DNA of 64,000 nt, from assembly GCA_016700035.1 (NCBI GenBank), contig CP064998.1:526790-590789 (forward strand), written 5' to 3'. Positions within the stretch are counted from its first letter, which is position 1, and each line of letters starts with the position of its first letter. Below the pieces are notes generated by a model. It was not told the DNA's origin. It did no database searches and was given only the letters and a program-made list of their open reading frames with translations. This document shows, piece by piece, positions 6,246-27,905 of the stretch. A program made the position numbers and the translations under genes. The DNA comes from a bacterium (GTDB taxonomy: Bacteria > Patescibacteriota > Saccharimonadia > CAILAD01 > GCA-016700035).

Positions 6246-6656
6246 GTGTCGGAAGAGATTCTACCCTTCGATTTTGGTTGGCGGATTAAGATCTATGTAG
6301 TCAACGCCATCCCAACTCAAACCCAGTTTTTTGTCCGCAAGCCGCATGATGACGGCTGTCGATCGAAAACCATCGATTTGCTAGCCAAAAATAGCCGACT
6401 GCGCAGTATCATTGAGGAATTGGTAGTGATTCGTAATGCTAGACTCGAAAGTGAAGCTGAGCTTCGAGCCTCGTCGGCACAAGAACTACGCAGTAATATT
6501 GAGTATGTACTCATACATCGCTTCATTAGCCTGATTGGACCAGATTATGACGCTCACTTTGATGAGGCTTTCCAGATCTTGATGGCCACACTCGACCCAC
6601 ACCTTGAGGCTGCCCAAAAGCTCGAGTTGAGCCGACAGTCCGCGCTGTTCAACTAG
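6246..6656 (+). CDS. hypothetical protein, 136 aa, GTG start
   Basis: It is supported by a -35 TTGACA (6175-6180), a -10-like TTATAT/TATATA after a 17/18-nt spacer, an AAGGAGAG SD 6 nt before the GTG, and an intrinsic terminator 6666-6697. It lies between rpsJ and rplC on the opposite strand. Confidence 0.6.
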   Translation: MSEEILPFDFGWRIKIYVVNAIPTQTQFFVRKPHDDGCRSKTIDLLAKNSRLRSIIEELVVIRNARLESEAELRASSAQELRSNIEYVLIHRFISLIGPDYDAHFDEAFQILMATLDPHLEAAQKLELSRQSALFN

Positions 6657-8414: not shown

Positions 8415-8885
8415 CTACTCTTCATCGGTGGGGTCTTCAATAATTATCACCTCTTCAAGTAGTCCGTCTTCATTTAAGATCCAAGCATCAGAAATCTGGG
8501 CTTCGGCAAAATGTCGGACTTTTGTTCTAATGGTGTAAAAGACAACAAAACGTAGAGGCCAGGCAATAATTAGCCCAATCAGCCAAACGGTCAAAATAAT
8601 ATGATTCATGTTGAGCTGAGGTAAAACTGGACTAAGATAACCACCAACTAGCACCACACCTACCGCTATCACTGCTATAGGGAAGCTAATGTAGGCGTCA
8701 TAGGCATCACGCAATGCGCTATAATCTCCGTCGATAAAGCGCTGCCACTGCCAATGATCAATCTTTTGCCCCAGAGACATCCGAAAACGCGACTTAATTG
8801 CGGTAAACTCAGCATCAACCACATGTTGTGGCATCTGTGCGCCAGGATTCGGCTTGTCAGATGAGCTATCCTCTCGGTCGGACAT
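8415..8885 (-). CDS. hypothetical 2-TM membrane protein, 156 aa
   Basis: Two hydrophobic helices (IAVIAVGVVLVGGYL and IILTVWLIGLIIAWPL) and an acidic C-terminus. There is a GGGGGA SD. Terminators lie on both sides. Confidence 0.5.
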   Translation of the reverse strand: MSDREDSSSDKPNPGAQMPQHVVDAEFTAIKSRFRMSLGQKIDHWQWQRFIDGDYSALRDAYDAYISFPIAVIAVGVVLVGGYLSPVLPQLNMNHIILTVWLIGLIIAWPLRFVVFYTIRTKVRHFAEAQISDAWILNEDGLLEEVIIIEDPTDEE

Positions 8886-8975: not shown

Positions 8976-11081
8976 CTATTCAGCCTGACTGGCTGATTTC
9001 TTGCCGATTAGCTCCTCAGCAATATTGCGCGGAACTTCCGCATAATGATCAAATTCCATCGAATAGCTAGCTCGACCTTGAGTCATCGAACGCAAAGTTG
9101 TGGCATAACCAAACATTTCGGAAAGTGGTACAAAACCATCAATTATCTTTGCCCCTGAGCGATCTTCCATTTTATCAATCCGACCGCGCTTGGAGTTAAT
9201 ATCACCCACCACATCACCCATAAATTCTTCTGGAGTGGTGACTTCTACCTTCATAACTGGCTCTAAAATAACCGGATCAGCTTTTCGTACACCCTCCTGT
9301 AAGGCCATCGATCCAGCAATCTTGAAGGCCATTTCTGATGAGTCAACTTCATGATATGAGCCATCATAGAGCTTAGCTTTTACGTCAACTACCGGATAGC
9401 CGGCAAGAACACCATTACCCATGGCCTCTTTAATACCTTCATCAACCGGCTTGATATATTCACGAGGTACGACACCACCAACAATAGCGTTTTCGAATTC
9501 ATAAGTTGGCTTATCCCCCTCAATGTCTTCGGCATGCACAAGTGGGCCAACTTCGAGCCAAACATGACCATATTGACCTCGACCACCAGATTGACGGACA
9601 AATTTTCCTTCCACCTGGACAGTTTTACGCACGGTTTCGCGATAGGCAACTTGCGGACGACCAACATTAGCCTCCACCTTAAATTCGCGCTTCATACGAT
9701 CCACCAGTACTTCTAGATGTAACTCACCCATACCCGAGATGAGGGTCTGACCAGCTTCATTGTCGGAGCTAACCCTGAAAGTTGGGTCTTCTTCAGCAAG
9801 ACGTGATAAAGCCAGCGACATTTTCTCTTGGTCGGCCTTGGTTTTTGGCTCCACAGCAATCTGAATAACTGGTTCTGGGAAAGTAATTTGCTCCAAAATG
9901 ACACCGTTCCCGACTTCACACAAAGTATGGCCTGTCATAGTGTTTTTTAAACCAACCGCAGCGGCAATTTCCCCGGCGTACACTTCCTGCACCTCTTCAC
10001 GCTGATTAGCATGCATACGCAAGATTCGCCCAATTCGCTCCTTCTCGCCGGTTGAACTATTTAGTACGTACGAACCGCTCTTCAGGGTTCCAGCATAAAC
10101 ACGGAAGAAGCACAGCTTACCTACAAATGGATCGGTAGCAATCTTAAAAGCCAAGCCCACAAAGGGAGCCTCATCGGTAACCGAAAGCACCTCTTGTTCA
10201 CCGGTCTTAACGTTGTCGGCCAGAGGAGCCGCAATATCTAAGGGATTTGGCAGATAATCTACCACGATATCCAAAAGCTTCTCAACCACGACACCGCGGC
10301 CATCACCACCAGATACGATAAAAAACTCACCAGTTAGTACACTCTTACGAATGCAGGCTTTAATCTCATCTGTAGTTAGCTCGGTGCCTTCAAGATACTT
10401 TTCCATTATTGCATCATCAGCTTCTACAGCAGCCTCTATGAGGTGCTGACGATAACGCTCAGCTTTCTCACGCATATCTTCAGGAATATCACCCTCAATC
10501 AACTCCTTATCCTTATATTCTGTATAGGTGTAGGCCTTCATAGCAATTAAATCAACAATGCCGTTAATTGACTGCTCTTCACCGATTGGCAAGTGGATTG
10601 GATAAGCTCGGCGTGTTAGGCGCTCATGGATGGACTCTAAGCTTTTATAAAAATCTCCACCAGTCTGATTGATCTTATTAATAAAGCAGATGCGTGGTAC
10701 ACCATACTTGTTAGCCTGGCGCCATACGGTCTCAGACTGAGGCTCCACGCCCATCTTGCCGTCAAAAATAGTGACTGCCCCGTCTAGTACGCGCAAACTA
10801 CGCTCCACCTCTACGGTAAAATCGATATGTCCAGGCGTATCAATAATATTGATGCGCTTACCATTCCAAAAACAGGTGGTAGCCGCCGAAGTAATAGTGA
10901 TTCCACGCTCCCGCTCCTGCTCCATCCAGTCCATTGTTGCCTCACCCTCATGAACCTCACCAATTTTGTGAGTTCGACCAGTGCGATACAAAATACCTTC
11001 GGTTGTGGTGGTCTTACCGGCATCAATGTGCGCAATAATACCAATGTTACGTGTGTTATCTAGAGAATATTCTCGAGCCAT
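8976..11081 (-). CDS. fusA: elongation factor G
   Basis: [12 protein letters not shown] and DTPGHIDF motifs. 701 aa. EF-G domain order. Confidence 0.95.
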
Positions 11082-11190: not shown

Positions 11191-12849
11191 CTAAGCTGAT
11201 CCAACAAATATCTCTTCTCCACCAATATTCTTTGTAAAAAAACTATCATGGGAGATATATATGATTGCCCCCTCGTAGCGCCTGAGGGCATTTTCTAACT
11301 CTTCAATCGAAGGCAAATCAAGATGGTTAGTGGGTTCATCAAGAATTAAGACATTTGGCCGGCGGGCAAATAAGGCAATCAGTTGAATGCGAGCTTTCTG
11401 ACCACCCGAGAGCTGGTCAACTAAGATGACGCCGTCTTGTCGTTCAAATAAATATTCCCGTAAGGCTCTAGTGATCGCCTCATCATTAACCGGTCGACCG
11501 CTCTGCGAGTAAATATCTGCCACCGCCTCGGCTAGTGTCATGGTAAGATAGCGCCCATCAATCTCTTGCTCGTAACACCCCAGCACAAGCGAGGAAGAAT
11601 AATCAATACTACCGGCAAACACCTTAGAAGTTAAGCTTCCACCTTCTGCTGTTGCTGTCATGGCATCTACTAAGGTTGTCTTACCTGCACCATTACGGCC
11701 CACAATATGAACCCTCTCACCAGCCCGCAACTCAAAACTAAGGTTACTAAATAACGGTTTTGCATAACCCAAAGAGAGCTCGTCAATGCGGATTAGGTCA
11801 GCTGCATTACCAGCAACTACTTCACGAGCTCCACGCAGGTTAATCGATTTAGCTTTATACTTTTCATACTGCTGAGTTTGCGATCGCTTCAGTGACTGAG
11901 CTGACTCTTGATCAATCCAGATAGTTGGCTTAGATATCCGCTCTTCCAGCTCGGCAATTTCTCGCTCTAGCCGACGCACCAACGGAATAAAGGGGTTGGG
12001 ACTTTGCTTAGTACGAACTTTCTTTAGCTCAGCTTGCTTCAATGCCTCACGGCGATTTTCTAAGGTCTTTATATTAACTTCATATTGATGCATGGCGCTG
12101 GCTGAAACTAGTGTATTTTGCTTCAGATAAGACTCATAATTACCCGAAAAGCTTTGCAATTTTTGATCTTTAAGCTCTATCATTCGATCCGCACAAGCTA
12201 GCACATCACGATCATGCGAGATAACCAACACAGCTGAGCGAACCTCACGTAGCCAAGCCGTAAAACTCTCTTTGGCCACATAGTCCATATGGTTGGTTGG
12301 TTCATCCAGAATTAAGAGATCGGCGTTGGAATATTCAATCTGAACCAGTTGGGCGAATCGCTTTTGTCCACCCGAAAGATCACTAAAACTTCCTAAAATT
12401 TGCTCTTTTGATAGCTGATAAGCTTTGAGCGACTCAACCACCTGATCTTTAACATGATAGTAGCCCAGCTCATCGTAACGCTCCAGAGCATTGGTATATT
12501 CCTCAATCAGACCCATATCATCACCCATCGTAGCTGGATATGTCTCAATTATATGTGTCAAATGGTCGTATTCACGCAGACCATGTAAAACATACTCCAC
12601 CACCGACATCGATTCATCAATATCATGCTGCTCCTGCTCGGTGGTCAGTATCTCAACCCCCTTACGCAGCCGCACTGTACCAACATAATCGCTGTCAACT
12701 CCAGAGATAATTCGTGCTAGTGAAGTTTTACCGACACCGTTTCGACCAATAAAACCAATTACCTCGCCGGCCTGGATTTGCAATTCGGTATTACGTAAAA
12801 GCACTTTTGCGCCAGCCTGTTTTTCATCAATCTTTGCCTCTAATAACAT
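11191..12849 (-). CDS. ABC-F family ATPase (EttA/Uup-like, two ABC domains, no TM domain)
   Basis: Two Walker A sites (GRNGVGKTS, GRNGAGKTT) and two signature motifs (LSGGQKRFAQL, LSGGQKARIQL). An inter-domain linker is present. 552 aa. Confidence 0.85.
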   Translation of the reverse strand: MLLEAKIDEKQAGAKVLLRNTELQIQAGEVIGFIGRNGVGKTSLARIISGVDSDYVGTVRLRKGVEILTTEQEQHDIDESMSVVEYVLHGLREYDHLTHIIETYPATMGDDMGLIEEYTNALERYDELGYYHVKDQVVESLKAYQLSKEQILGSFSDLSGGQKRFAQLVQIEYSNADLLILDEPTNHMDYVAKESFTAWLREVRSAVLVISHDRDVLACADRMIELKDQKLQSFSGNYESYLKQNTLVSASAMHQYEVNIKTLENRREALKQAELKKVRTKQSPNPFIPLVRRLEREIAELEERISKPTIWIDQESAQSLKRSQTQQYEKYKAKSINLRGAREVVAGNAADLIRIDELSLGYAKPLFSNLSFELRAGERVHIVGRNGAGKTTLVDAMTATAEGGSLTSKVFAGSIDYSSSLVLGCYEQEIDGRYLTMTLAEAVADIYSQSGRPVNDEAITRALREYLFERQDGVILVDQLSGGQKARIQLIALFARRPNVLILDEPTNHLDLPSIEELENALRRYEGAIIYISHDSFFTKNIGGEEIFVGSA

Positions 12850-12883
12850 AGTTTTTCCAGTATACCCACTGCCAATCCGTTAA

Positions 12884-12919
12884 GCAAAAAGAGCGGCTAG
12901 GATTATTGTCCTAACCGCT
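12884..12919 (-). terminator. intrinsic terminator after small Cys/His-rich gene, upstream of ABC-F promoter
   Basis: On the minus strand, AGCGGUUAGGA-caauaa-UCCUAGCCGCU (11-bp stem, one mismatch) is followed by CUUUUUGCUU. Confidence 0.6.
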
Positions 12920-12931
12920 TCTCGGCGTCGC

Positions 12932-13228
12932 CTACCGCTTTCGACGACGCAATTGACCAGCATCAGCAACACCATGTGGCTTGCCCGCTTGGGTGTAGCA
13001 CTCGGCGTGATAATGCTCAACTCGATTCCAAGTCTTCTGCACATAAACATTACAGATGACTTGGTTAGCTCGATGTTTGGCCTGAAATTTTACCCGCTCA
13101 TCACAGTGTGAGCAAACAGCCTGAGTACCAGGTTCAATATTTCGAAGAACTGCTCGAGACCTGGTTGGTGGTGGCTTCTCAAGCGTACTAACTGTCAAGC
13201 TCATAGCTCCCATTCTAGTCTCCTTCAC
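12932..13228 (-). CDS. small Cys/His-rich hypothetical protein (probable true start ATG at 13213 with AAGGAG SD; about 93 aa)
   Basis: It contains the C/H pattern CSHCDERVKF...HYHAEC. A strong AAGGAG SD precedes the internal ATG. GC is elevated. Confidence 0.5.
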   Translation of the reverse strand: MKETRMGAMSLTVSTLEKPPPTRSRAVLRNIEPGTQAVCSHCDERVKFQAKHRANQVICNVYVQKTWNRVEHYHAECYTQAGKPHGVADAGQLRRRKR

Positions 13229-13274
13229 TGGTTCGAATGGAATAAGGGCCCATTTGACTCAACCCGCTTCAAAA

Positions 13275-13640
13275 TTAACCCCGTCGACTCACCCAAAGAT
13301 CAGCTATGATCCCGCCAAATGGCGAGAGCGTCATGCCACCAGATGAAAGTCTACTCGACTTACTAATAACTGTGTGGTAGCCAACCTCCAGCCAACCCGG
13401 CGTGTAGTCCAGGCAATTCACCTCTAGGCTGTGCCCCAGAAGCCAAACACTCGGCCCGATCACTGGCTGATTATCAACTACAAGAATCTCGACATTCGGC
13501 TGATCACCGCAAGCTACCACTCGCAACTTCGACACCAACAACGAACCACGCCTCACTACTTTGGTGGCTATAGAAGGCCTGACGCCAATGTGAATGACCG
13601 AGTCTTGATCTACTTGCTCTAAGTCTAATCGCTTAGACAT
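13275..13640 (-). CDS. hypothetical protein, 121 aa
   Basis: A near-consensus promoter (TTGACA-17-TATAAA at 13680-13708, minus strand) and a GGAG SD 6 nt before the ATG. No recognisable motif. Confidence 0.55.
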   Translation of the reverse strand: MSKRLDLEQVDQDSVIHIGVRPSIATKVVRRGSLLVSKLRVVACGDQPNVEILVVDNQPVIGPSVWLLGHSLEVNCLDYTPGWLEVGYHTVISKSSRLSSGGMTLSPFGGIIADLWVSRRG

Positions 13641-13679
13641 GTTGCTCCATTTTGTTTGAGGTGCAGATAAGGTGTAAAA

Positions 13680-13708
13680 TTTATACTACATTATATGTAA
13701 TATGTCAA
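13680..13708 (-). promoter_or_regulatory. sigma70-like promoter for ORF 13275-13640
   Basis: On the minus strand, TTGACA-17 nt-TATAAA. A GGAG SD 6 nt before the ATG. Confidence 0.5.
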
Positions 13709-14494
13709 TCAATTATAATCTAGCTCTACGAAAAAACGATTCTCAGGTAAGTCTTCTAGTAGTCTCATGATGTCTGGCATACTTTTCAGATATTGATCGT
13801 TACCCCAATCGGGCGCTAGATCGCTCCAAAATATCTCACCCGCCATATGATTGCCATGGAGCTTATCAGTCTGGGCTGTCCCGCGAAACAGATGAAAAAA
13901 TATTTCGCTCACCGGTGCACCGTTTTCCTCAATGGTCACATAGCCGTCACCAACATGCTTCAGCTCACTCTTGAGCCCTGTTTTTTCAAAAAGCTCACGG
14001 TGAGTAGCTTCGTGAATGGTTTCGCCCAGATGCAGTTTGCCGTAGGGTAAGCCTACCTGGCCCAAAAGCGGCTGCACCTTGCGACGCATAAGAAGCCAGC
14101 GCCCCAGTCGATCTCGTACGGCTAGCAATATGACGATCTTTGGCTGCAAACGAGGCTTTAATGATTCAGGCGAGAGCGTATCGACGTAACGCTTACCGTC
14201 GGCCGTGAGAGAGTACTGCTTATCTGCAGCCTGCTCAACGTACCCCTCCTGCATAAGCGCCTTTAGATGGTAGGCGAAGAGATTACTCTCCACCCCAGCC
14301 GGCTTAATATCTCGATAGCGCAGTGAATCGCCACGCATCAGATTGCGCAGAATCGCTCTTTGAATGTGATGCATCATGTCTTCAAGTATACCATGACTCA
14401 AATATTGTTGAGTCAAAAAGTCTGGCCTAGCTAGAGAGCCATACATGCGAGATAGTGAAAGTGTCCTAAAGCACCTTACATGAAGGAAGTGCAT
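13709..14494 (-). CDS. winged-HTH + Nudix hydrolase fusion protein (start uncertain; likely the MMHH.. Met pair at about 14377)
   Basis: The Nudix box GKLHLGETIHEATHRELFEKTGL is present. An N-terminal wHTH-like segment reads IQRAILRNLMRGDSLRYRDIKP...NLFAYHLKALMQEGYV. Confidence 0.65.
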   Translation of the reverse strand: MHFLHVRCFRTLSLSRMYGSLARPDFLTQQYLSHGILEDMMHHIQRAILRNLMRGDSLRYRDIKPAGVESNLFAYHLKALMQEGYVEQAADKQYSLTADGKRYVDTLSPESLKPRLQPKIVILLAVRDRLGRWLLMRRKVQPLLGQVGLPYGKLHLGETIHEATHRELFEKTGLKSELKHVGDGYVTIEENGAPVSEIFFHLFRGTAQTDKLHGNHMAGEIFWSDLAPDWGNDQYLKSMPDIMRLLEDLPENRFFVELDYN

Positions 14495-15010
14495 GAGATG
14501 CCGGAAATAACGCCAGATGACCTAACCGCTCTACTCACTCTCCACGCTGAAAGGCAAACTGAGTACGCCGAAGCCGAAGCTGCGCACCACCAAGCCGAGT
14601 CGGCGTTCAAAAAAGCCCGAGGTGCACGCTACGCAGTCCTCGAGAACTATCGGGAAGCCCGACGCTGCTACATCCAAGAGTACCTGGAACGCTACGAAAA
14701 AGTACTGTGCGCCTACTGCAAGCAGCTGCGTCGACTCGATCGCATGCGCAGCTCTCGAGAGTTTGGCTTCTACTGGGACTCCGATTGCCGCTACAATCGT
14801 TGGCGCACCCCGTATGACAATCGTTTTGCCATCTGCGAGCGCTGCATCCCAACTCAAACGTATACCGTCAGCGAGGAGGATGGCTACAGGGTTGGGGTTG
14901 AGCTGGTGGAATTCGACCGCAAAGCCTACACGAGGCAGCTTACCTATGGCAATGAGAACCTCGAGCTCGTTGCAAAAGCACTGAGCATCCCATTTCCCCC
15001 TCTTAACTAG
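14480..15010 (+). CDS. Cys-rich hypothetical protein (probable start ATG 14498 after AAGGAAG SD; about 170 aa)
   Basis: It has the spacing CAYC...C...CERC, suggestive of a zinc ribbon. GC is roughly 55% by eye. An intrinsic terminator follows at 15011-15057. Confidence 0.55.
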   Translation: MKEVHEMPEITPDDLTALLTLHAERQTEYAEAEAAHHQAESAFKKARGARYAVLENYREARRCYIQEYLERYEKVLCAYCKQLRRLDRMRSSREFGFYWDSDCRYNRWRTPYDNRFAICERCIPTQTYTVSEEDGYRVGVELVEFDRKAYTRQLTYGNENLELVAKALSIPFPPLN

Positions 15011-15057
15011 CCCCTTGAACGAGAAAGTCCCTCGCTTGAGGGGTTTTCTTTATTTAT
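15011..15057 (+). terminator. intrinsic terminator after Cys-rich + strand gene
   Basis: A GC-rich imperfect hairpin CCCCUUGAACGAG...CUCGCUUGAGGGG is followed by UUUUCUUUAUUUAUU. Confidence 0.55.
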
Positions 15058-15104
15058 TCAGGGTAGCAGAGGTGTATTCTGAGTGATGCTCACGCAGGAC
15101 GAAC

Positions 15105-15156
15105 CAAAAAATCTTCCCGAGGTGTACTAGAACGTACAATGAGGGAAGATTTTTTG
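15105..15156 (-). terminator. rpsG terminator: perfect 14-bp inverted repeat with 24-nt loop
   Basis: CAAAAAATCTTCCC...GGGAAGATTTTTTG. Stem plus U-run on either strand. 38 nt downstream of the rpsG stop. Confidence 0.65.
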
Positions 15157-15193: not shown

Positions 15194-15670
15194 TTAGTAC
15201 CGGGCGAAGTGAGCAAATGCCTTATTGGCTTCAGCCATCTGGTGAGTGTCGGCCTTCTTCTTAATCGCATCGCCTTGATTGTTATAGGCGTCCAAGAGTT
15301 CATTTGCTAAGCGCTTATCAAAGCTCTTACCTTCTTTAGCACGAGCAGCATCTAAAATCCAAATCATTGCATAGTGAATCCGGCGATCTGGCTTTACTTC
15401 CATTGGGACCTGGTAGTTAGCTCCACCTACACGGCGAGAGCGCACCTGTACATGCGGGCTGGCATTTTTAATGGCGCCCTCAAAAATCTCCATCGCGTCG
15501 GCCTTACCCTTAGTAGACGCCTCAGTCAGAGCATCATAGACGAGGTTTTCTGCTAGACGCTTCTTGCCACTTTTCATCACCTTATTAATCATACGGGTAA
15601 CTAGTACCGAGTTGTACTGCATATCTGGAGCGAGTTCGCGCTTTAAGGATTTAGTCTTTTTACGTGGCAT
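15194..15670 (-). CDS. rpsG: 30S ribosomal protein S7
   Basis: MPRKKTKSLKRELAPD... is S7-like. 158 aa. It follows rpsL. Confidence 0.92.
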   Translation of the reverse strand: MPRKKTKSLKRELAPDMQYNSVLVTRMINKVMKSGKKRLAENLVYDALTEASTKGKADAMEIFEGAIKNASPHVQVRSRRVGGANYQVPMEVKPDRRIHYAMIWILDAARAKEGKSFDKRLANELLDAYNNQGDAIKKKADTHQMAEANKAFAHFARY

Positions 15671-26984: not shown

Positions 26985-27042
26985 ACTTAAAATAAAAAGT
27001 GGCCGGAATTAACGTATCCGGCCGTTGAGGCTCAAGGCCTCA
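26985..27042 (-). terminator. tandem hairpins + T-run after ORF 27058-27492
   Basis: The hairpins are GGCCGGA-attaacgta-TCCGGCC and TGAGGC-tcaag-GCCTCA. On the minus strand ACUUUUUAUUUU follows. Confidence 0.6.
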
Positions 27043-27057
27043 CGCGCCCCCGAAGGG

Positions 27058-27492
27058 TCAGATGGCTTGTGGGGGTAGATCGGCAATCTTACGATCACCT
27101 TGGTAGACAGCACCATCCCTGACGGTGAGCTCCTCTGCGAGGAAGTGGCCAATCCGGCGCTTGGTGCTGTAGTAAGCACTCACCCCGACAGGGTCGATGT
27201 CGTCGGAGAAGCCACCATCAAAGGCAACCGAGCGTACTTCAATATCAATGATCCAGCTCTCCATAGATCCGTCCTCTGGCTCGATGCCGAGGATGCGGCC
27301 GCGCAAGCGAACCGTCTCTGGGGAGACCGGATGCTCAACCGTGAAGTTCACGGCGTGAACCGGAAGCATGAAGTACTTCAGTCCATCGAAAAGCTCCTCT
27401 CGCGAGGGGCCTCCCACGATCGAACCTTCGACCATCAAGCGGCGCAGCTTGCGCATGGCCAATTCATTGAAATAAGCATTGGTGGTGCTCAT
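27058..27492 (-). CDS. hypothetical protein, 144 aa, GC-rich
   Basis: An AGGGG SD is present. Tandem hairpins and a T-run follow it at 26985-27042. GC is visibly above its neighbours. Confidence 0.5.
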   Translation of the reverse strand: MSTTNAYFNELAMRKLRRLMVEGSIVGGPSREELFDGLKYFMLPVHAVNFTVEHPVSPETVRLRGRILGIEPEDGSMESWIIDIEVRSVAFDGGFSDDIDPVGVSAYYSTKRRIGHFLAEELTVRDGAVYQGDRKIADLPPQAI

Positions 27493-27905
27493 ACGAGCCC
27501 CTTTCGGTACAACCCGGGAGTGGCGCCCGAGTACCGCCGTTAGCCCATTAAGAGCTCACCTAGTCATCCAACCAGGAATTGCCTTGTATTTTAATATTTT
27601 TTTATATGTATGTCAATATTCAAGCGTGGATGAAAGGACTATTTGGTAGTATATCGTCGCATGCTCGAAGTAAACCCTTCGTTTTGGCTGAGTAATCTGG
27701 AAACTTTTCAGCTTGTTGTTACCCTGTGGCGATAATATTTACTTCAACACTCGGTGTTTTGTATGAAGATTTTGACAGTAAGCCAAACGCCGAAAACGGT
27801 GATTTGGCTGAGCTCATAGATTAAGTCGCTACTCCACTATCAAGTAAAGTAACGCAATATAAAAGCGTTGCTCTCGTTATTGCACAGATCTCCTACCGTT
27901 ATGAT

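Follow-up and report, generated by a model that had tools for sequence, protein, structure and literature searches.

Results

Gene content of the interrupted str operon

We analysed a 64-kb stretch (64,000 nt) of the Saccharimonadia contig CP064998.1, called the window in the following, in which a block of accessory genes interrupts the str operon between rpsG and fusA (locus tags IPM44_02645-02680). The genes on the minus strand are, in order, rpoB, rpoC, rpsL, rpsG (15194-15670), the block, which ends with an ABC-F ATPase gene (11191-12849), fusA (8976-11081), a gene for a 156-aa membrane protein, and tuf. An initial annotation had marked positions 12,884-15,060 as an inserted cassette of four genes, here termed A, B, C, and D, and had estimated that fusA is reached only after about 4 kb; the distance from the rpsG stop codon to the fusA start codon is 4.1 kb. 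As described below, a block of this kind is shared by a clade of Saccharibacteria.

The four open reading frames and their Shine–Dalgarno (SD), promoter, and terminator signals were found where the initial annotation had placed them. Gene A (14498-15010, plus strand) has an AAGGAAG SD and probably starts at the ATG at 14498, giving a protein of 170 aa, the length also called in most related contigs; the alternative ATG at 14480 would give 176 aa. Gene B (minus strand) encodes a winged helix-turn-helix (wHTH) domain and a Nudix domain. The 261-aa reading frame of B is over-extended, as the orthologues begin with MMHHIQR, and the gene was set to 13709-14377 (222 aa). A and B diverge from a 120-bp intergenic region containing a perfect dyad, TGACTCAA-N6-TTGAGTCA (14394-14415, no strand), which is a candidate operator for B. 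A putative promoter of B, the extended -10-like element TGGTATACT (14385-14393, minus strand), abuts the dyad and ends 7 nt ahead of the B start codon; L001, the closest relative lacking A, has TGCTATACT at the same place. This arrangement would imply an essentially leaderless B mRNA.

For gene C (13275-13640, minus strand, 121 aa, GGAG SD) a putative sigma-70-type promoter can be read at 13680-13708 on the same strand (TTGACA at 13703-13708, 17 nt, TATAAA at 13680-13685). Gene D (12932-13213, minus strand) encodes 93 aa and has an AAGGAG SD; a single 9-mer, TTGAGTCAA, is situated at 13254-13262 on the minus strand, about 40 nt upstream of its start codon. The ABC-F gene (minus strand, 552 aa) lies outside the marked span and was omitted from the initial annotation, which had limited the block to four genes; it belongs to the same inserted block. 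Elements of the form TGnTATACT, resembling an extended -10, were seen on the minus strand upstream of both ABC-F (12859-12868) and B (14385-14393), ending 9 nt and 7 nt before the ATG, respectively. Neither gene has an SD, whereas A, C, and D do, which suggests leaderless or near-leaderless mRNAs for ABC-F and B.

Three intrinsic terminators were identified. The rpsG terminator (15105-15156, minus strand) consists of perfect 14-bp arms (15105-15118 and 15143-15156) around a 5-bp inner stem, with an A/T tract at either side, confirming the inverted repeat of the initial annotation; its predicted fold has -39.4 kcal/mol (z -6.8, with 0 of 200 shuffles equally stable), and it is conserved in L001 and L002. 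Convergent to it is the terminator of gene A (15021-15050, plus strand), a 13-pair stem followed by a T-run (-22.7 kcal/mol, z -2.8), of which a degenerate copy survives in the A-less L001. The third, behind gene D (12892-12919, minus strand), is an 11-pair stem with a T-run. No Rfam-type match at E <= 1 was found between 12.7 and 15.3 kb, and the only RNA genes matched in the whole window are three tRNAs.

The dN/dS values lie between 0.05 and 0.20, homologues of A keep the reading frame at identities as low as 28-39%, and the model of A reaches a pLDDT of 90; all four are coding genes. Measured against L001 (a JGI contig, which served as the reference for dN/dS and for the identity profile), the dN/dS of B is 0.05 and that of ABC-F 0.06, with C at 0.20 and D at 0.19.

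Distribution of the block among related genomes

We compared the rpsG-fusA gap in loci whose rpsG is at least 80% identical to that of the window. In every relative examined at this level a block of the same kind is present, with the layout [A], B, (C), D, ABC-F, [membrane protein plus ClpB-like AAA+], the genes in brackets being found in some of the loci. The window and its species group (L010-L019) carry A, B, C, D, and ABC-F, and L001 and L002 carry B, C, D, and ABC-F without A. In L114 and L026 the genes A, B, D, and ABC-F are joined by a 120-aa membrane protein and a ClpB-like AAA+ ATPase, and the corresponding set occurs in L042, a relative labelled Candidatus Saccharibacteria with an rpsG 87% identical to that of the window. 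L116 has B, D, ABC-F, membrane protein, and AAA+ ahead of fusA; L117 has A, B, a divergent D paralogue, and ABC-F ahead of fusA; and L113 and L112 have A, B, D, the D paralogue, and ABC-F. The gap of L027 contains A, B, membrane protein, AAA+, ABC-F, and a C-like gene of 113 aa, and that of L004 contains D, membrane protein, and AAA+, fusA following in both. D together with ABC-F, or D alone, thus occupies the gap in most of the relatives examined; a clear D was not found in the gap of L027 or L117. Homologues of A at 62%, 39%, and 28-33% identity keep the divergent position beside rpsG and B unchanged.

A metagenome scan for rpsG returned seven loci only, two of which (L118 and L119) have contiguous rpsG and fusA, with fusA beginning about 30 bp past rpsG. 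In these two loci rpsG is 70%, fusA 78%, and tuf 81% identical to the genes of the window. Since the block is shared wherever rpsG is at least 80% identical and the two genes are contiguous at 70%, the block is a derived, clade-level insertion in the ancestor of one Saccharibacteria clade, with later lineage-specific losses. The interruption of the operon reported in the initial annotation is therefore real and derived. The single four-gene cassette that it proposed does not hold, and neither does a recent or strain-specific insertion, as the same gap is filled across the clade and A and B diverge beside rpsG even in lineages whose A is only 28-39% identical; the opposite possibility, an ancestral component of the operon, applies at the level of the clade and fails at that of the phylum.

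Apart from L004, all relatives for which the retrieved sequence spans the gap have the ABC-F gene, at 64-75% identity. Its product has two ABC_tran domains (Pfam), and the best NCBIfam match is a ribosomal-protection-like ABC-F model (331 bits, cut-off 380). With 225.7 bits against a cut-off of 806.75 for TIGR03719 it is not an EttA orthologue.

Gene A is the sole gene polymorphic at the strain level. Positions 14467-15029 of the window, comprising the A reading frame, correspond to 82 bp in L001 and L002, and alignment of the 82-bp segment of L001 for remnants of A gave 57% identity over 49 nt. Because outgroups carry A at the same place, its absence in L001 and L002 appears to be a loss.

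The pair of genes that accompanies the block in some relatives is not present in the window. In L004 (11073-13843), and likewise in L026, L027, L042, and L116, it consists of the 120-aa membrane protein and a ClpB/ClpA-like double-AAA+ ATPase of about 805 aa, whose gene overlaps or closely trails that of the membrane protein. The N-terminal segments of the ATPase are hydrophobic and probably membrane-spanning. Its match to ClpB (413 bits) is far under the cut-off, and its PADLOC matches to DolB and PDC-M37B are confined to the AAA domain.

Composition and divergence of the segment carrying genes A to D

The initial annotation had judged the segment to be 50-55% GC against 44% in the flanks. 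An elevation is present, with 50.0% GC at 12932-15010 against a window mean of 45.7% (z = 2.6, top 1% of the 2-kb windows); its size had been somewhat overstated, as only A reaches 55%. Gene by gene the values are 55.2% for A, 51.1% for C, 48-49.5% for B (depending on the start used), and 48.8% for D, and among the flanking genes 44.6% for ABC-F, 46.4% for fusA, 47.4% for rpsG, and 51.1% for rpsL. The highest 2-kb GC windows of the 64 kb overlap the span of the block and the adjacent rpsG-rpsL. The tetranucleotide distance is also maximal at the block (z up to 3.5), but rpoC is almost as deviant. In the window, the GC content at third codon positions (GC3) is 0.63 in A, 0.52 in B, and 0.53 in C, compared with 0.40-0.45 in the flanks and 0.435 in the B gene of L001; related GC-richer genera show values of 0.5-0.6, similar to those of the block.

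The nucleotide identity to L001 is about 92% in both flanks and drops to 65-85% exactly over 12,900-15,150, so that the marked span is indeed evolutionarily distinct. The lower edge of this hyperdivergent segment is the D terminator and the upper edge the rpsG terminator. Within it, dS to L001 reaches 2.0 in B and 1.15 in D and is 0.81 in C, three to six times the values of the flanks. There ABC-F has a dS of 0.37 and the 156-aa membrane protein one of 0.25; tuf, fusA, rpsL, and rpoC have values of 0.19-0.38, and rpsG is higher with 0.67. The simplest reading suggests that the lineage of the window or that of L001 has acquired its present A-B-C-D allele through homologous recombination from a more distantly related member of the clade. 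Such a replacement would account for the GC anomaly of the span.

We considered whether the segment could instead be a recently acquired island of four genes from outside the lineage. The composition (with A at a GC3 of 0.63), the hyperdivergent segment itself, the presence or absence of A among close relatives, and the identity of D to Acidimicrobiia proteins (55-70%) would fit such an origin. The same genes are found in the same place across the clade, however, and L001 still has the closest relatives of the window's B (83% aa identity), C (75%), and D (69%), so that any import must have been the replacement of an allele within the clade and not a new insertion. No integrase, transposase, or recombinase was found among the reading frames of 8-20 kb or the Pfam and NCBIfam matches of the block, extending the initial annotation, which had noted the lack of integrase and transposase. 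The search for flanking or terminal repeats gave only short matches at chance level, the nearest tRNA is situated at 29.2 kb, and no viral relatives were found in IMG/VR, either with the D-family alignment or in single-protein scans with A and C. We therefore regard an outside island as very improbable.

Gene B and its putative operator

The Nudix domain of B is well above the Pfam threshold (NUDIX, PF00293, 36.1 bits, cut-off 21.1, E 7.5e-9), whereas the matches of the N-terminus to wHTH families (MarR-type, HTH_45, DUF7347) are all below it. The wHTH part comprises residues ~5-68 and the NUDIX part ~82-172, and the fusion recognized in the initial annotation is thereby upheld. The Nudix box, GKLHLGETIHEATHRELFEKTGL, follows the pattern G-x5-E-x7-R-E-L-x-E-K-x-G-L, and over eight orthologues the consensus reads G-K-L-H-x-G-E-x7-R-E-[LM]-x-E-[KR]-x-G-[LI]. 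B does not match the complete catalytic box, G-x5-E-x7-R-E-U-x-E-E-x-G-U, with K or R standing in for the final Glu of REUxEE in each of the eight orthologues (RELFEK in the window; RILANK in L042, where two further Glu are lost). This Glu is a catalytic metal ligand in MutT; because it is replaced, hydrolysis by B is likely to be weak or absent. The nearest NCBIfam and PDB matches are Nudix domains of the ADP-ribose pyrophosphatase type.

The dyad upstream of B is the sole exact match in the 64-kb window, and three matches with at most three mismatches were counted where 0.32 are expected. L001 has the same two arms with a different spacer between them. Each of the eight lineages that carry B has the 9-mer TTGACTCAA, or its complement, no further than about 70 bp upstream of the gene; the 9-mer is absent from the gap of L004, which has no B. 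The 9-mer at 13254-13262 is not conserved upstream of D in the relatives, and it might, at most, be a second site for B. A wider regulon was rejected, as the two remaining exact copies in the window lie inside genes and are no more than expected by chance.

From motif conservation and promoter anatomy we conclude that B is most likely a repressor of its own gene whose Nudix domain serves as ligand sensor. The nucleotide-sensing regulatory module of the initial annotation is a fair description of gene B. Alternatively, B could primarily be an enzyme, an active Nudix hydrolase such as a pyrophosphatase for ADP-ribose or a dinucleotide, the wHTH being an accessory and the 9-mer a mere promoter element. 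The NUDIX match above threshold, the retention of G, E119, R127, and usually E128 and E131, and the likeness of TTGACT to a -35 hexamer speak for this possibility. It has to be set against the K or R at the final Glu in every orthologue, the two additional losses in L042, and the position of the 9-mer, which in three lineages lies 20-22 nt from the -10, too distant for a -35, and forms a dyad. A primarily enzymatic role is thus improbable.

Genes A and C

The protein encoded by A carries a CAYC...C...CERC motif and is rare: only three clusters were found among 5.8 billion proteins, and a search of 1.8 billion representatives gave eight matches at E <= 0.001, five of them clear full-length matches at E <= 1e-10. 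Every relative of A with retrievable context adjoins B, and also rpsG wherever the contig reaches that far. The structural model (pLDDT 90) shows an N-terminal helix of 60 residues, a beta-rich CxxC...C...CxxC domain, and two short C-terminal helices; it has no structural match among the solved structures of the PDB. The family is confined to this clade, and according to the model A would combine a coiled coil with a zinc site. Because of its position, A is probably the regulated output of B.

Gene C is represented by only four clusters, all from close relatives, and has no Pfam, NCBIfam, PADLOC, or PHROG match. It is weakly similar (30%, E 2e-5) to the 113-aa gene between ABC-F and fusA in L027. 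C is a lineage-specific protein under purifying selection. The idea that C is a decayed remnant of a ClpB-like AAA+ gene (blastp E 0.09) was rejected on account of its dN/dS of 0.20, its own promoter and SD, and the lack of homology at the DNA level.

The high turnover, the elevated dN, and the presence or absence of A might also point to a conflict module, that is, to phage defence, anti-defence, or antagonism between host and episymbiont, with a wHTH regulator and small zinc proteins as effectors. It is common for defence systems to be controlled by wHTH regulators; in relatives the block contains a membrane-anchored ClpB-like AAA+ protein with DolB and PDC-M37B domain matches in PADLOC, and D is common to Saccharibacteria and a candidate host group that co-occurs with them (PMC10943839). 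These AAA+ matches are limited to the generic AAA domain, however. PADLOC gave nothing significant for A, C, and D (A matching only the coiled-coil region of LmuB, E 1e-3) and a generic Nudix match only for B (1.7e-4), and the PHROGs likewise gave nothing meaningful for A, C, and D. The span contains no nuclease, toxin, or NTPase effector, its location is fixed in a core operon and not in a defence island, and dN/dS values of 0.05-0.2 indicate purifying and not diversifying selection. Given these results and the empty scans of viral contigs, the defence or anti-defence module suggested by the initial annotation finds no support, and we consider a conflict function highly doubtful.

Gene D, its zinc site, and its neighbours

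D consists of a beta-rich core with a variable basic N-terminal tail and a zinc motif, C-x2-C-x31-H-x2-C. The core is very highly conserved, its invariant residues being C34, C37, H67, H69, and C72, and C34-x2-C37-x31-H69-x2-C72 is invariant in 53 sequences. The family comprises 136 clusters at 55-70% identity, lacks a Pfam domain, and was found in at least 221 species in a scan of GTDB representatives; of the best 80 matches, 79 are from Acidimicrobiia and one is from Saccharibacteria. In Acidimicrobiia, D lies on the same strand as an ABC-F gene and a median of 198 bp downstream of it in 56 of the 62 loci with enough flanking sequence. The ABC-F beside D in L020 is a true EttA (TIGR03719, 927 bits, cut-off 807), and the other loci have ABC-F proteins that share more than 55% identity with it. 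The ABC-F next to D in the Saccharibacteria clade is a different one, sharing only 28-30% identity with the EttA of L020.

The classical zinc site of the PARP-type zinc finger (zf-PARP) is C-x2-C-x(28-30)-H-x2-C. The site of D fits this pattern, its spacing of 31 residues being one above the classical range, and an hhalign comparison with Zn1 of PARP-1 placed the ligands in register (E 0.1, not significant). Only one of the 53 members matched the Pfam model of zf-PARP (PF00645), at a non-significant E of 0.094; the D profile had no match in the PDB at E <= 10, and a Foldseek search of D against the PDB returned nothing significant. A link between D and zf-PARP at the sequence level was therefore rejected, all sequence-based tests being non-significant. 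The model of D tentatively suggests a fold like that of the PARP finger, not filed under PF00645.

In a neighbour-joining tree of D the sequences from Saccharibacteria do not form a monophyletic group (0 of 200 bootstraps); any one of them is closer to the Acidimicrobiia consensus than to the others. This tree fits a transfer between the phyla followed by faster evolution. Because genera of Saccharimonadia co-occur with Ca. Microthrix in wastewater plants (PMC10943839), an exchange of D between host and episymbiont is plausible. Going further, D might be a new bacterial family of stand-alone PARP-like zinc fingers that act as nucleic-acid-binding partners of ABC-F ATPases (EttA in Acidimicrobiia, a divergent ABC-F in Saccharibacteria) and were exchanged between Acidimicrobiia, including the Microthrix group, and co-occurring Saccharibacteria that may live on them, the whole block then being a translation-stress module, nucleotide-sensed through the wHTH-Nudix protein and built into the core translation operon of the episymbiont. 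In this full form we judge the proposal unlikely.

Several further observations concern D. A paralogue (about 32-37% identical, CxxC...HYHxxCY retained) is present in L113 (1979-2224) and L117 (about 12235-12462), in both lineages situated between D or B and ABC-F. At the D locus of L026 (4805-5077) the public gene call is a 90-aa antisense reading frame, and tblastn puts the conserved D frame on the opposite strand. Two contigs of metagenome-assembled genomes (MAGs) labelled 'Bifidobacterium breve' (L065 and L067) carry a D of the Acidimicrobiia type, and the labels are probably wrong; in L065 an ettA fragment 76% identical to EttA of Microthrixaceae lies upstream of D, and the upstream sequence of L067 is too short to show one. 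In L020 (5539-5880) and 24 other Acidimicrobiia loci, about one third, a gene for 113 aa stands between ettA and D; its one match, to SLATT_1, is weak (E 9e-4), and it is not similar to C.

Other variable sites in the window

The 156-aa predicted membrane protein between fusA and tuf (8415-8885, minus strand) interrupts the str operon at a second place; it has no family match and is kept in L001, L004, and L010 (156-163 aa), and L118 and L119 likewise have about 1.5 kb between fusA and tuf. Between rpsJ and rplC a 136-aa reading frame lies on the opposite strand (6246-6656, plus strand) without a Pfam match; the same reading frame is present in L001, and in L004 and L005 this slot of the ribosomal protein cluster is occupied by a DUF3467 protein, making it another variable slot. 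The highest GC content of any 500-bp segment in the first 30 kb (58%) was found at 27001-27500, where there is no Rfam family. This peak corresponds to a 144-aa reading frame (27058-27492, minus strand) without a Pfam match and an overlapping antisense reading frame.

Discussion

We propose, with slightly better than even confidence, that the segment at 12,884-15,060 is the fast-evolving half of an ancestral accessory block and that it operates through a regulatory mechanism centred on B. The block was inserted between rpsG and fusA in an ancestor of one Saccharibacteria clade and has been retained since, with genes lost in some lineages; in the window the A-B-C-D part may have been replaced by a GC-richer allele through homologous recombination between the two terminators. 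We infer that B acts as a dimeric winged-helix repressor that would bind the dyad TTGACTCAA-N6-TTGAGTCAA abutting its own extended -10 promoter, so repressing its own expression and also, by way of the 120-bp region from which both genes diverge, that of gene A. Its Nudix domain would mainly sense a nucleotide ligand, probably ADP-ribose or a related dinucleotide, whose binding would release the DNA. The regulated output would then be the expression of A, a putative zinc-binding coiled-coil protein. D may be a nucleic-acid-binding protein resembling PARP zinc fingers and working with translation ATPases of the ABC-F type, and C is presumably a lineage-specific addition.

A simpler possibility is that there is no functional module at all, and that unrelated genes with independent functions are inherited vertically at a permissive site bounded by terminators, B regulating only itself. 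The distributions of the genes do differ, A and C being restricted to the clade or species and D being shared with Acidimicrobiia; promoter and terminator signals are separate for every gene, and genes have been lost independently in different lineages. The same operon is moreover interrupted elsewhere, by the 156-aa membrane protein between fusA and tuf and the 136-aa reading frame between rpsJ and rplC. On the other hand, the divergent pairing of A and B is maintained down to 28-39% identity of A, D stands beside ABC-F genes of different subfamilies in two phyla, and the candidate operator is located in the control region shared by A and B. We therefore consider a mere collection of genes to be rather unlikely.

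A number of points weigh against the proposed mechanism or parts of it. Regarding B, the 9-mer TTGACTCAA includes the -35-like TTGACT, and its conservation may partly reflect promoter function; its copies are direct repeats in L117 and differently spaced in L042. In the Nudix box of B the G, E, and R are retained, as are, in most cases, the first two Glu; a residual hydrolase activity is therefore possible. B also persists without A in L001 and L116, which means that A is not its only target. No donor lineage was identified for the putative recombinant segment, and its high dS could partly reflect a compositional shift and not a separate history. As for D, a terminator separates it from ABC-F in the window, the gap of L004 has D without ABC-F, the adjacency of D and ettA might be vertical synteny inside one class, and the neighbour-joining tree gives no direction of transfer.

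The str operon is among the most conserved bacterial gene arrays, and a clade that keeps and reshuffles a block of 4-8 kb inside it is a natural experiment. Saccharibacteria have genomes below 1 Mb, and retained genes are unlikely to be dispensable ballast. Testable items are the Nudix-wHTH regulator of reversed domain order with its candidate operator, the zinc protein A, and the widely conserved D tied to ettA; IMCC26207 (L073), a member of the D set that is not labelled as a MAG, may be a cultured strain. The presence of D in both Saccharibacteria and Acidimicrobiia is also relevant to the exchange of genes between episymbionts and the organisms presumed to host them in activated sludge. 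The evidence is at present insufficient to speak of a new class of system.

Compared with the canonical str operon (rpsL-rpsG-fusA-tuf), the window retains the order and orientation of all four core genes. It differs in having five genes, at least three terminators, and 4.1 kb between rpsG and fusA, and also in the membrane protein gene that separates fusA and tuf. With genomic islands the segment shares a deviant composition but not the patchy, strain-specific presence, as only A is polymorphic, and this through loss.

Concerning EttA and other ABC-F neighbourhoods, D lies directly downstream of ettA in Acidimicrobiia and directly upstream of the ABC-F gene in the Saccharibacteria clade, where the ABC-F of the window is not EttA and also falls under the cut-off of the ribosomal-protection-like model. 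We know of no published ABC-F accessory protein that resembles D. Unlike the PARP-type zinc fingers of PARP-1 (Zn1/Zn2) and DNA ligase III, D is a stand-alone bacterial protein of 80-130 aa without a catalytic partner domain, and its genomic link is to translation ATPases and not to DNA repair.

Two systems are relevant for B. The NUDT9-homology domain of TRPM2 is a non-catalytic Nudix ligand sensor (PMC4974056), and B may share with it a REUxEE-substituted Nudix fold that binds a nucleotide instead of hydrolysing it; there the domain belongs to a eukaryotic channel, here to a putative bacterial DNA-binding protein. Closer in layout are the NrtR proteins, ADP-ribose-responsive repressors with an N-terminal Nudix domain and a C-terminal wHTH domain (PMC2330246). 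Like these, B joins a catalytically compromised Nudix domain, closest to ADP-ribose pyrophosphatases, to a winged-helix DNA-binding domain and has a palindromic, in its case candidate, operator at its own locus. In B, however, the domain order is reversed, with the wHTH at the N-terminus; this wHTH is of the MarR/Sso10a/DUF7347 type and not that of NrtR. The dyad is unrelated in sequence and occurs only at the B/A promoter, and the block contains no genes of NAD metabolism. By analogy, B would thus follow the logic of NrtR without being a member of the NrtR family.

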